A stretch of 64,000 nucleotides of DNA from NCBI RefSeq assembly GCF_022846255.1, contig NZ_AP025682.1; one strand, given 5' to 3'. Both the position numbers and the translations under genes were made by a program. This document shows positions 51,501 to 52,072 of the stretch, piece by piece. Source of the DNA: Escherichia coli (GTDB lineage: Bacteria > Pseudomonadota > Gammaproteobacteria > Enterobacterales > Enterobacteriaceae). The notes under the pieces are model-generated. The model saw only the letters and a list, made by a program, of their open reading frames with translations, was not told the origin of the DNA and ran no database searches. How positions within the stretch are numbered: position 1 is the first letter of the stretch; every line of letters starts with the position of its first letter.

Positions 51501-51711
51501 GGTGGGCGATTCTAATTAGCCAACAGGATTCGCGCCACTCATTTTTCTATGCTTATATTTAGTTTTGCACCTTATTACTTCACTACGTGATCACTTTATT
51601 GATGGTTATTAAACCAATCACCAGCAAGAAGTGAAAAAACTGTGAGTAAGCGGGTGATAAATGGTAAAAGTCATCTTGCTATAACAAGGCTTGCAGTGGA
51701 ATAATGAGGCC

Positions 51712-52072
51712 GTTTCCGTGTCCATCCTTGTTAAAACAAGAAATTTTACGGAATAACCCATTTTGCCCGACCGATCATCCACGCAGCAATGGCGTAAGAC
51801 GTATTGATCTTTCAGGCAGTTAGCGGGCTGCGGGTTGCAGTCCTTACCGGTAGATGGAAATATTTCTGGAGAGTAATACCCAGTCTGTTTCTTTGATAAT
51901 TGCGCTGTTTTTCCGCATGAAAAACGGGCAACCGACACTCTGCGCCTCTTTGAGCTGACGATAACCGTGAGGTTGGCGACGCGACTAGACACGAGGCCAT
52001 CGGTTCACACCCGGAAAGGCGTTACTTTGCCCGCAGCTTAGTCGTCAATGTAAGAATAATGAGTAAGTTACG
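51712..52072 (+). promoter_or_regulatory. rne long 5' leader (autoregulatory UTR); extent approximate
   Basis: 572-bp non-coding gap between divergent rluC and rne; E. coli rne is known to carry a roughly 360-nt structured autoregulatory leader; boundaries not determined from sequence. Confidence 0.45.

Follow-up and report, generated by a model that had tools for sequence, protein, structure and literature searches.

RNase E feedback is said to operate through the leader of the rne mRNA, as reportedly worked out by Jain and Belasco in 1995, by Diwa and colleagues in 2000 and by Schuck and colleagues in 2009, and we take hp2, as known from the last two of these studies, to be the stem-loop by which the enzyme is sensed. 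The leader is represented in Rfam as RF00040, rne5 ('RNase E 5' UTR element'). A summary given in PMC10989929 describes RNase E-dependent feedback on the stability of rne mRNA in Escherichia coli, and the same source cites 361 nt as the length of the E. coli rne 5' UTR. On the opposite strand, K-12 carries the annotated gene yceQ (b1085; UniProt YCEQ_ECOLI; 'DUF2655 domain-containing protein'), which resembles the Keio 'essential' pseudo-genes (rnc upstream of era; psrO upstream of pnp): in these, as in yceQ, deletion is lethal via the promoter or leader of the neighboring gene, and the effects of transposons or dCas9 depend on orientation. The likeness does not extend to the product, in that rnc encodes a real protein (RNase III) whereas yceQ offers no evidence of any. 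The apparent 'essentiality' of yceQ has been explained in published work by disruption of the rne promoter or leader: by TraDIS, its Keio 'essentiality' was found to be spurious and due to rne expression (Goodall et al.), and the 'essentiality' seen by CRISPRi was likewise attributed to rne expression (Rousset et al.).

The window analysed here is a 64,000-nt stretch of E. coli DNA (contig NZ_AP025682.1), in which the gap between the divergent genes rluC and rne occupies 51501..52072, or 572 bp, exactly as a first-pass annotation had claimed (rluC ends at 51500 and rne starts at 52073; Table 1). We are highly confident that the gap serves as the control region of these two divergent genes and that the yceQ ORF within it has no functional protein product; a rne leader and a spurious annotated ORF are the main points, and all are known already. 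The 772 bp around the gap identify the window as E. coli, matching 5425 of 5426 complete genomes (5397 at no less than 99% identity); at least 80% of the region is covered in 5414 of the 5426, nearly all with identities of at least 99%, and the window sequence is >99% identical to K-12 and other E. coli. From one-genome-per-species Enterobacterales contigs, we fetched 120 loci with the invariant hp2 motif (core 20 nt) as the search pattern, and kept 113 (including two separately fetched E. coli loci) in which rluC and rne are divergent and both start codons align. Across these 113 loci the gap measures 552-828 bp, mostly 552-612 bp, and conservation of the intergenic region was scored on the 94 distinct Enterobacterales gaps.

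Table 1. Features of the rluC-rne region, in coordinates of the window.
Feature	Coordinates	Strand	Evidence
rluC, 23S rRNA pseudouridine synthase CDS	50541..51500	-	ORF list and RefSeq annotation of identical DNA
Conserved block adjoining rluC start; candidate rluC promoter or very short leader	51501..51560	-	conservation, 94 Enterobacterales gaps
124-codon antisense ORF, GTG start (maximal yceQ ORF)	51618..51992	-	ORF list; judged non-coding
yceQ as in MG1655 (b1085), 106 aa, internal GTG	51618..51938	-	mapped by sequence identity
Double DnaA box, TTATCACCC-gc-TTACTCACA (whole: TTATCACCCgcTTACTCACA)	51641..51660	-	identity to ChIP-seq-bound motif
rne P1 promoter: -35 TTGCTA, 18-nt spacer, TG-extended -10 AATAAT	51676..51705	+	promoter scan and conservation
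rne 5' untranslated leader, 361 nt	51712..52072	+	Rfam, alignment, fold; length per PMC10989929
RF00040 rne5 match, model positions 1-333 of 333	51712..52048	+	covariance model
Leader hairpin hp1	51714..51753	+	Rfam consensus structure mapped; MFE fold reproduces hp1
Leader hairpin hp2, with invariant stretch ACGCAGCAATGGCGTAAGACGT	51763..51819	+	Rfam structure and covariation
Leader multi-branched domain hp3	51825..52039	+	Rfam structure, covariation, MFE fold
Single-stranded leader 3' end, conserved ribosome-binding region TAAGAATAATGAGTAAGTTACG	52040..52072	+	conservation
rne, RNase E CDS, 1061 aa	52073..55258	+	ORF list and RefSeq annotation of identical DNA
ERIC-like insertion in loci L036, L071, L061, L082, L095, L089, L111, L055, L105	51852/51853

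The gap had been proposed to hold the long, structured 5' UTR of rne, and this is upheld by a full-length match to RF00040, a conserved promoter 361 nt before the ATG, and covariation. The covariance model scored 260.1 bits (gathering score 180; E = 5.7e-82), a value that places a long structured leader far beyond chance. The match lies on the same strand as rne and ends at 52048, with the ATG at 52073; it was the single match in a permissive Rfam scan of 50500-53000 and was recovered again when the whole window was scanned. Similarly, 18 of 20 diverse Enterobacterales loci, ranging from Salmonella to Photorhabdus/Xenorhabdus, scored above the gathering cut-off, and the placement upstream of rne was likewise retained. 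Set beside the described element, the leader in the window is the E. coli element itself, with the same position, orientation, length, hp1, hp2 and hp3 domains and invariant hp2 stretch, and no differences between the two.

A promoter scan of both strands of 51400-52150 returned TTGCTA-18-AATAAT as the sole sigma-70-like match, and both hexamers of this P1 promoter were at least 95% conserved across the 94 Enterobacterales sequences. Transcription from P1 is predicted to start at about 51712, six nt after the -10 hexamer and 361 nt before the rne ATG; because subtracting the cited leader length from the position of the start codon (52073 minus 361) also gives 51712, the P1 hexamers stand at the right distance from the literature-derived transcript start. 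The hp2 core and the block TAGCGGGCTGCGGGTTGCAG were also conserved at 95% or more over the 94 gaps, the invariance of the hp2 core being partly by construction, as its 20 nt had served as the search pattern for the loci.

Pairing was counted on a MAFFT alignment of 42 Enterobacterales leaders, with the Rfam consensus structure projected on the window, and shows that the fold of the leader is kept by selection on the plus strand. Standard pairs filled 84.1% of cells, compared with 34-45% when partners were slid by 1-3 columns; both sides had changed in 43 of 84 pairs, and none of 500 shuffles reached the observed value on any of five measures. Helices 3-6, which make up hp2, were 85-100% paired, and within hp3 (helices 7-14) helices 7, 11, 12, 13 and 14 were 92-100% paired, with compensatory changes; such changes were also seen in helices 1 and 2 of hp1, although helix 2, like helices 8 and 9 of hp3, was weakly supported on the MAFFT alignment. 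In the same 42 leaders, cells with G-U numbered 304 and those with A-C 144, an excess that favors the plus strand as the folded RNA. The MFE fold of the leader (-103 kcal/mol) reproduces the three domains hp1, hp2 and hp3, and its energy is not exceptional against shuffles (z = -0.66, with z = -1.91 for the antisense strand). Thermodynamic folding is thus non-discriminating, and what supports the structure is covariation together with the Rfam model.

Within the gap, the first-pass annotation had also placed a 124-codon minus-strand ORF at 51618..51992, and this proved exact, with a GTG as the start codon; in MG1655 the ORF corresponds to 1144502-1144876. Its description as antisense to the rne leader holds for most of the ORF and fails for the last 31 codons, which lie over promoter and regulatory DNA. 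In the same way, yceQ is indeed annotated here in K-12, but as the inner 106 of the 124 codons only; all 124 are covered by older O157 and Shigella records of what is the same ORF. The associated doubt, that yceQ is not a real protein gene, is justified by a dN/dS near 1, by the absence of periodicity, and by frameshifts and stops outside Escherichia.

When we projected the E. coli yceQ frame on 28 other Enterobacteriaceae sequences (MG1655 and a second E. coli genome included), E. coli and E. albertii alone had it unbroken; in essentially all sampled E. coli it is intact, and it is approximately invariant. Single-base indels interrupt it in Salmonella, several Citrobacter, Enterobacter, Kosakonia, Pseudescherichia and others, and many non-Escherichia sequences have a stop at codon 101, with three Citrobacter genomes staying in frame over the first 100 codons. 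Codon 101 reads TAA or TAG in the outgroups and falls within the P1 spacer, whereas in Escherichia it is AAG, which carries the frame on for another 24 codons. Over the 113 loci, the longest antisense ORF ranged from 23 to 182 aa, and full-length homologues (124 aa, identity of at least 96%) occurred in Escherichia only.

The frame has no three-base periodicity: entropy was 0.827, 0.827 and 0.828 at codon positions 1, 2 and 3 (Kruskal p = 0.997), compared with 0.37, 0.18 and 1.30 for rluC (p=3e-45) and 0.11, 0.04 and 0.95 for rne (p=2e-53) over their first 125 codons in the same genomes. Since the three phases cover all positions, flat entropy rules out a coding sequence in all six frames. The comparison of synonymous with non-synonymous sites that the first-pass annotation had suggested was made by the Nei-Gojobori method, and dN/dS in the yceQ frame came to 0.90-1.21 against the three Citrobacter (100 in-frame codons) and 0.85 against E. 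albertii, whereas in the flanking rluC and rne it was 0.01-0.03, so that the comparison gives no sign of purifying selection on a protein encoded by the antisense ORF. One yceQ value of 0.37 rests on 7 substitutions, and within Escherichia the 4-7 substitutions in yceQ are too few for a direct measure of selection on a protein. The 'synonymous' divergence of the frame was 0.01-0.13, compared with 0.3-1.06 in the flanks, which puts the conservation of its 'synonymous' sites at some 4-50 times that seen in the neighboring genes; strong constraint that is equal at all codon positions is what constraint on an RNA and a promoter leads one to expect. Directly observed, then, is an antisense frame that evolves without any protein-level constraint.

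Codon usage and database searches told the same story of a frame unlike a gene, and the ORF passed none of the coding tests that we ran. Codon usage in yceQ scored -0.23 bits per codon, where all 39 long genes of the window scored 0.08-0.53; the value falls inside the range of shadow ORFs, whose median was -0.09. Searches with the ORF product returned no Pfam-A family at E <= 1, no NCBIfam match, and only chance-level matches in the PDB (E > 0.5). The name yceQ/DUF2655 implies a protein family, yet the Pfam-A copy and NCBIfam that we searched held no matching model, and the label 'DUF2655' survives merely as a record name. All 60 of the 60 sampled genomes lacked any RefSeq annotation under the ORF, a gene that the RefSeq pipeline has ceased to call. 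A single protein cluster (90% identity, 141 members) takes in both versions of yceQ, and among the 15 members listed all were from Escherichia/Shigella, with lengths of 69-124 aa.

The intactness and near invariance of the ORF in sampled E. coli and E. albertii, together with the extension of its frame from 100 to 124 codons in Escherichia through loss of the ancestral codon-101 stop, could be read as the mark of a young, Escherichia-specific de novo 'proto-gene', translated at a low level or under particular conditions. We consider this highly improbable: the invariance is explained by the leader, as the 'synonymous' sites are equally constrained and dN/dS is near 1, and to this are added the flat periodicity and the non-genic codon usage described above. 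The K-12 GTG is preceded, 6 nt upstream, by GAGG, which counts for the proto-gene, but the complement of this GAGG is part of a segment of hp3 that is conserved and paired. Length speaks for the proto-gene in that dinucleotide-preserving shuffles of the 572 bp gave an ORF of at least 124 aa on the minus strand in 26 of 5000 cases and on either strand in 45 of 5000 (0.9%); a length at about the 99th percentile is, however, unusual only for one region and unremarkable genome-wide, being expected several times among thousands of stretches. The intactness is itself incomplete, in that variants of 69-114 aa are known from Shigella and E. coli. In the scan of 51400-52150 the minus strand gave no promoter-like site, and a published study (10.1101/038851; bioRxiv, Price et al.) reported no ribosome-profiling reads for YceQ under three conditions, from which the frame is presumably untranslated. 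Were the proto-gene real, its expression by antisense transcription through the leader would couple a new peptide to the regulation of rne.

The minus strand could also matter as RNA alone, with the ORF irrelevant: a functional non-coding antisense RNA over the leader, made as a long rluC 5' UTR or as a transcript of its own, would form a divergent 'excludon' with rne and modulate it by transcriptional interference or by RNase III cleavage of the duplex. We think such an RNA unlikely. From RNA-seq coverage of E. coli, ExcludonFinder called 16 divergent excludons, one of them rne-yceQ (PMC12288877), but this call depends on the annotation of yceQ inside the rne UTR, so that the overlap is built in. 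A SELEX peak of sigma-S RNA polymerase reported between yceQ and rluC (PMC5493296) speaks for the antisense RNA. The promoter scan (51400-52150) gave no minus-strand promoter-like site in or downstream of the leader. The excess of G-U over A-C cells, moreover, indicates the plus strand as the selected RNA, and the region tolerates transposons that drive rne (Goodall et al. TraDIS; 10.1101/038851), insertions at yceQ being found in one orientation only (10.1101/038851).

The rne leader, central to the reading that we prefer, takes up only 361 nt of the 572-bp gap, and the 211 bp left over (51501-51711) are promoter and regulatory DNA. In a reporter study, promoters P1-P4 were placed within 555 bp upstream of the rne ATG (PMC8361080), and the double DnaA box, at -71 to -52 relative to the P1 start site, is identical to a ChIP-seq-bound DnaA motif published as '(yceQ) rne' (PMC11317965, 2024), which suggests that DnaA binds here. 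Like the boxes of other DnaA-regulated promoters (nrdA, dnaA, polA, purH), those at rne are paired 9-mers, 2 bp apart, in the same orientation and reportedly bound in ChIP-seq; they differ in a poorer match to the consensus (TTATCCACA), a low enrichment (5-fold), and a distribution limited to Enterobacteriaceae, the boxes being conserved in that family and not in Erwiniaceae, Yersiniaceae or Morganellaceae. At the other end of the 211 bp, the conserved block next to the rluC start contains the pieces GCGATTCTAA, AGCGCCAC, TTTTT and TGCTTA. On the rluC strand, TAGAAT (51514->51509) lies 8 nt before the rluC ATG with no Shine-Dalgarno between them, which suggests, from the DNA alone, either that rluC mRNA may be leaderless or near-leaderless or that 51501-51560 may hold an unrecognised regulatory site. 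The promoter scan gave no consensus match on the rluC strand at 51501-51560, and a literature search for leaderless rluC mRNA returned only irrelevant Renilla-luciferase matches.

Another conserved element of the 211 bp is GGTTATTAAACCAATC at 51603-51618, just past the yceQ stop, which has the inverted arms GGTT/AACC and is conserved in close Enterobacteriaceae; a protein may bind there, or the element may belong to an upstream rne promoter.

The multiple promoters, the published binding of DnaA to a double box 52-71 bp upstream of the P1 start, and the conserved blocks at 51501-51560 would also fit a gap that is mainly a hub of transcriptional control, in which promoters, DnaA and other factors dominate and the RNA leader is secondary. 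This emphasis seems to us rather doubtful, since the strongest and most widely conserved feature of the gap is the transcribed leader with its structure-preserving covariation, whereas conservation of the DnaA boxes and of most of 51561-51660 does not extend beyond Enterobacteriaceae. Moreover, in a sequenced E. coli strain (Z22-2) an IS1 at 51667-51675, within the 3' part of yceQ and immediately upstream of the P1 -35 hexamer, parts everything upstream from P1 and displaces the DnaA boxes and the upstream rne promoters by about 0.8 kb. Control by upstream DNA and control by an RNA leader are complementary views, not exclusive ones; as readings that would displace the leader, the hub, the antisense RNA and the proto-gene all have little support.

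Other natural disruptions also fall in the 3' part of yceQ: an ISEc11 at about 51635-51637 in E. coli O121 201805972 and a +1 frameshift at 51633 in E. coli strain 300081. In several other genera, ERIC-like palindromic elements split the yceQ frame at about codon 47. These elements, of ~125 nt each and present in one or two copies (85-257 nt in total), sit in the first branch of hp3 at the same point in all carriers, with the flanking leader alignable on both sides; the hosts are Citrobacter youngae and braakii, Klebsiella oxytoca, Raoultella, Kluyvera, Pseudocitrobacter and other Enterobacteriaceae, and E. coli has no such insertion in its leader.

In the working that we propose for the locus, the conserved P1 promoter would drive plus-strand transcription of the right-hand 361 nt, and the transcript would fold into hp1, hp2 and the branched hp3 as the rne 5' UTR. 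By established knowledge, and as described in the literature, excess RNase E activity causes the enzyme to bind and cleave this leader, and cleavage hastens decay of the rne mRNA, by which the level of RNase E is held constant. Further rne promoters upstream, the double DnaA box and the promoter region of rluC would lie in the left-hand 211 bp. The antisense yceQ ORF would be a by-product, free of stops because the constraints on RNA and promoter freeze the sequence, and it would have been lengthened in Escherichia when the ancestral in-frame stop in the P1 spacer disappeared.

This leaves the understanding of RNase E autoregulation unchanged, and the value of the analysis is mainly one of annotation hygiene, as lists of 'essential genes' and the reference annotation of K-12 still include yceQ. 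The evolutionary case (dN/dS near 1, no periodicity, decay of the frame outside Escherichia) is for treating yceQ as rne regulatory DNA, and it agrees with the published functional data. The locus also makes a textbook example of how a strongly constrained non-coding RNA can freeze a long frame on the opposite strand and mislead gene finders.

On the plus strand of the leader, two uORFs, of 39 aa (51704-51823) and 34 aa (51854-51958), were considered and rejected, as there is no periodicity in any frame and indels are frequent. Elsewhere in the window, Rfam matches identify two small RNAs, SraB (209.8 bits, 49683-49851, minus strand) and STnc490 (120.5 bits, 56772-56895, minus strand); SraB overlaps the 5' end of a 207-aa ORF (49806-50429), which suggests that the listed start of this ORF is too far upstream. 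Directly downstream of rne, at 55346-56175 on the plus strand, a TacA-like antitoxin (PF08681, E = 1.8e-26) overlaps an ORF resembling a GNAT acetyltransferase toxin. The K-12 neighbor at this position is presumably a flagellar gene, and the pair is probably a strain-specific toxin-antitoxin insertion.
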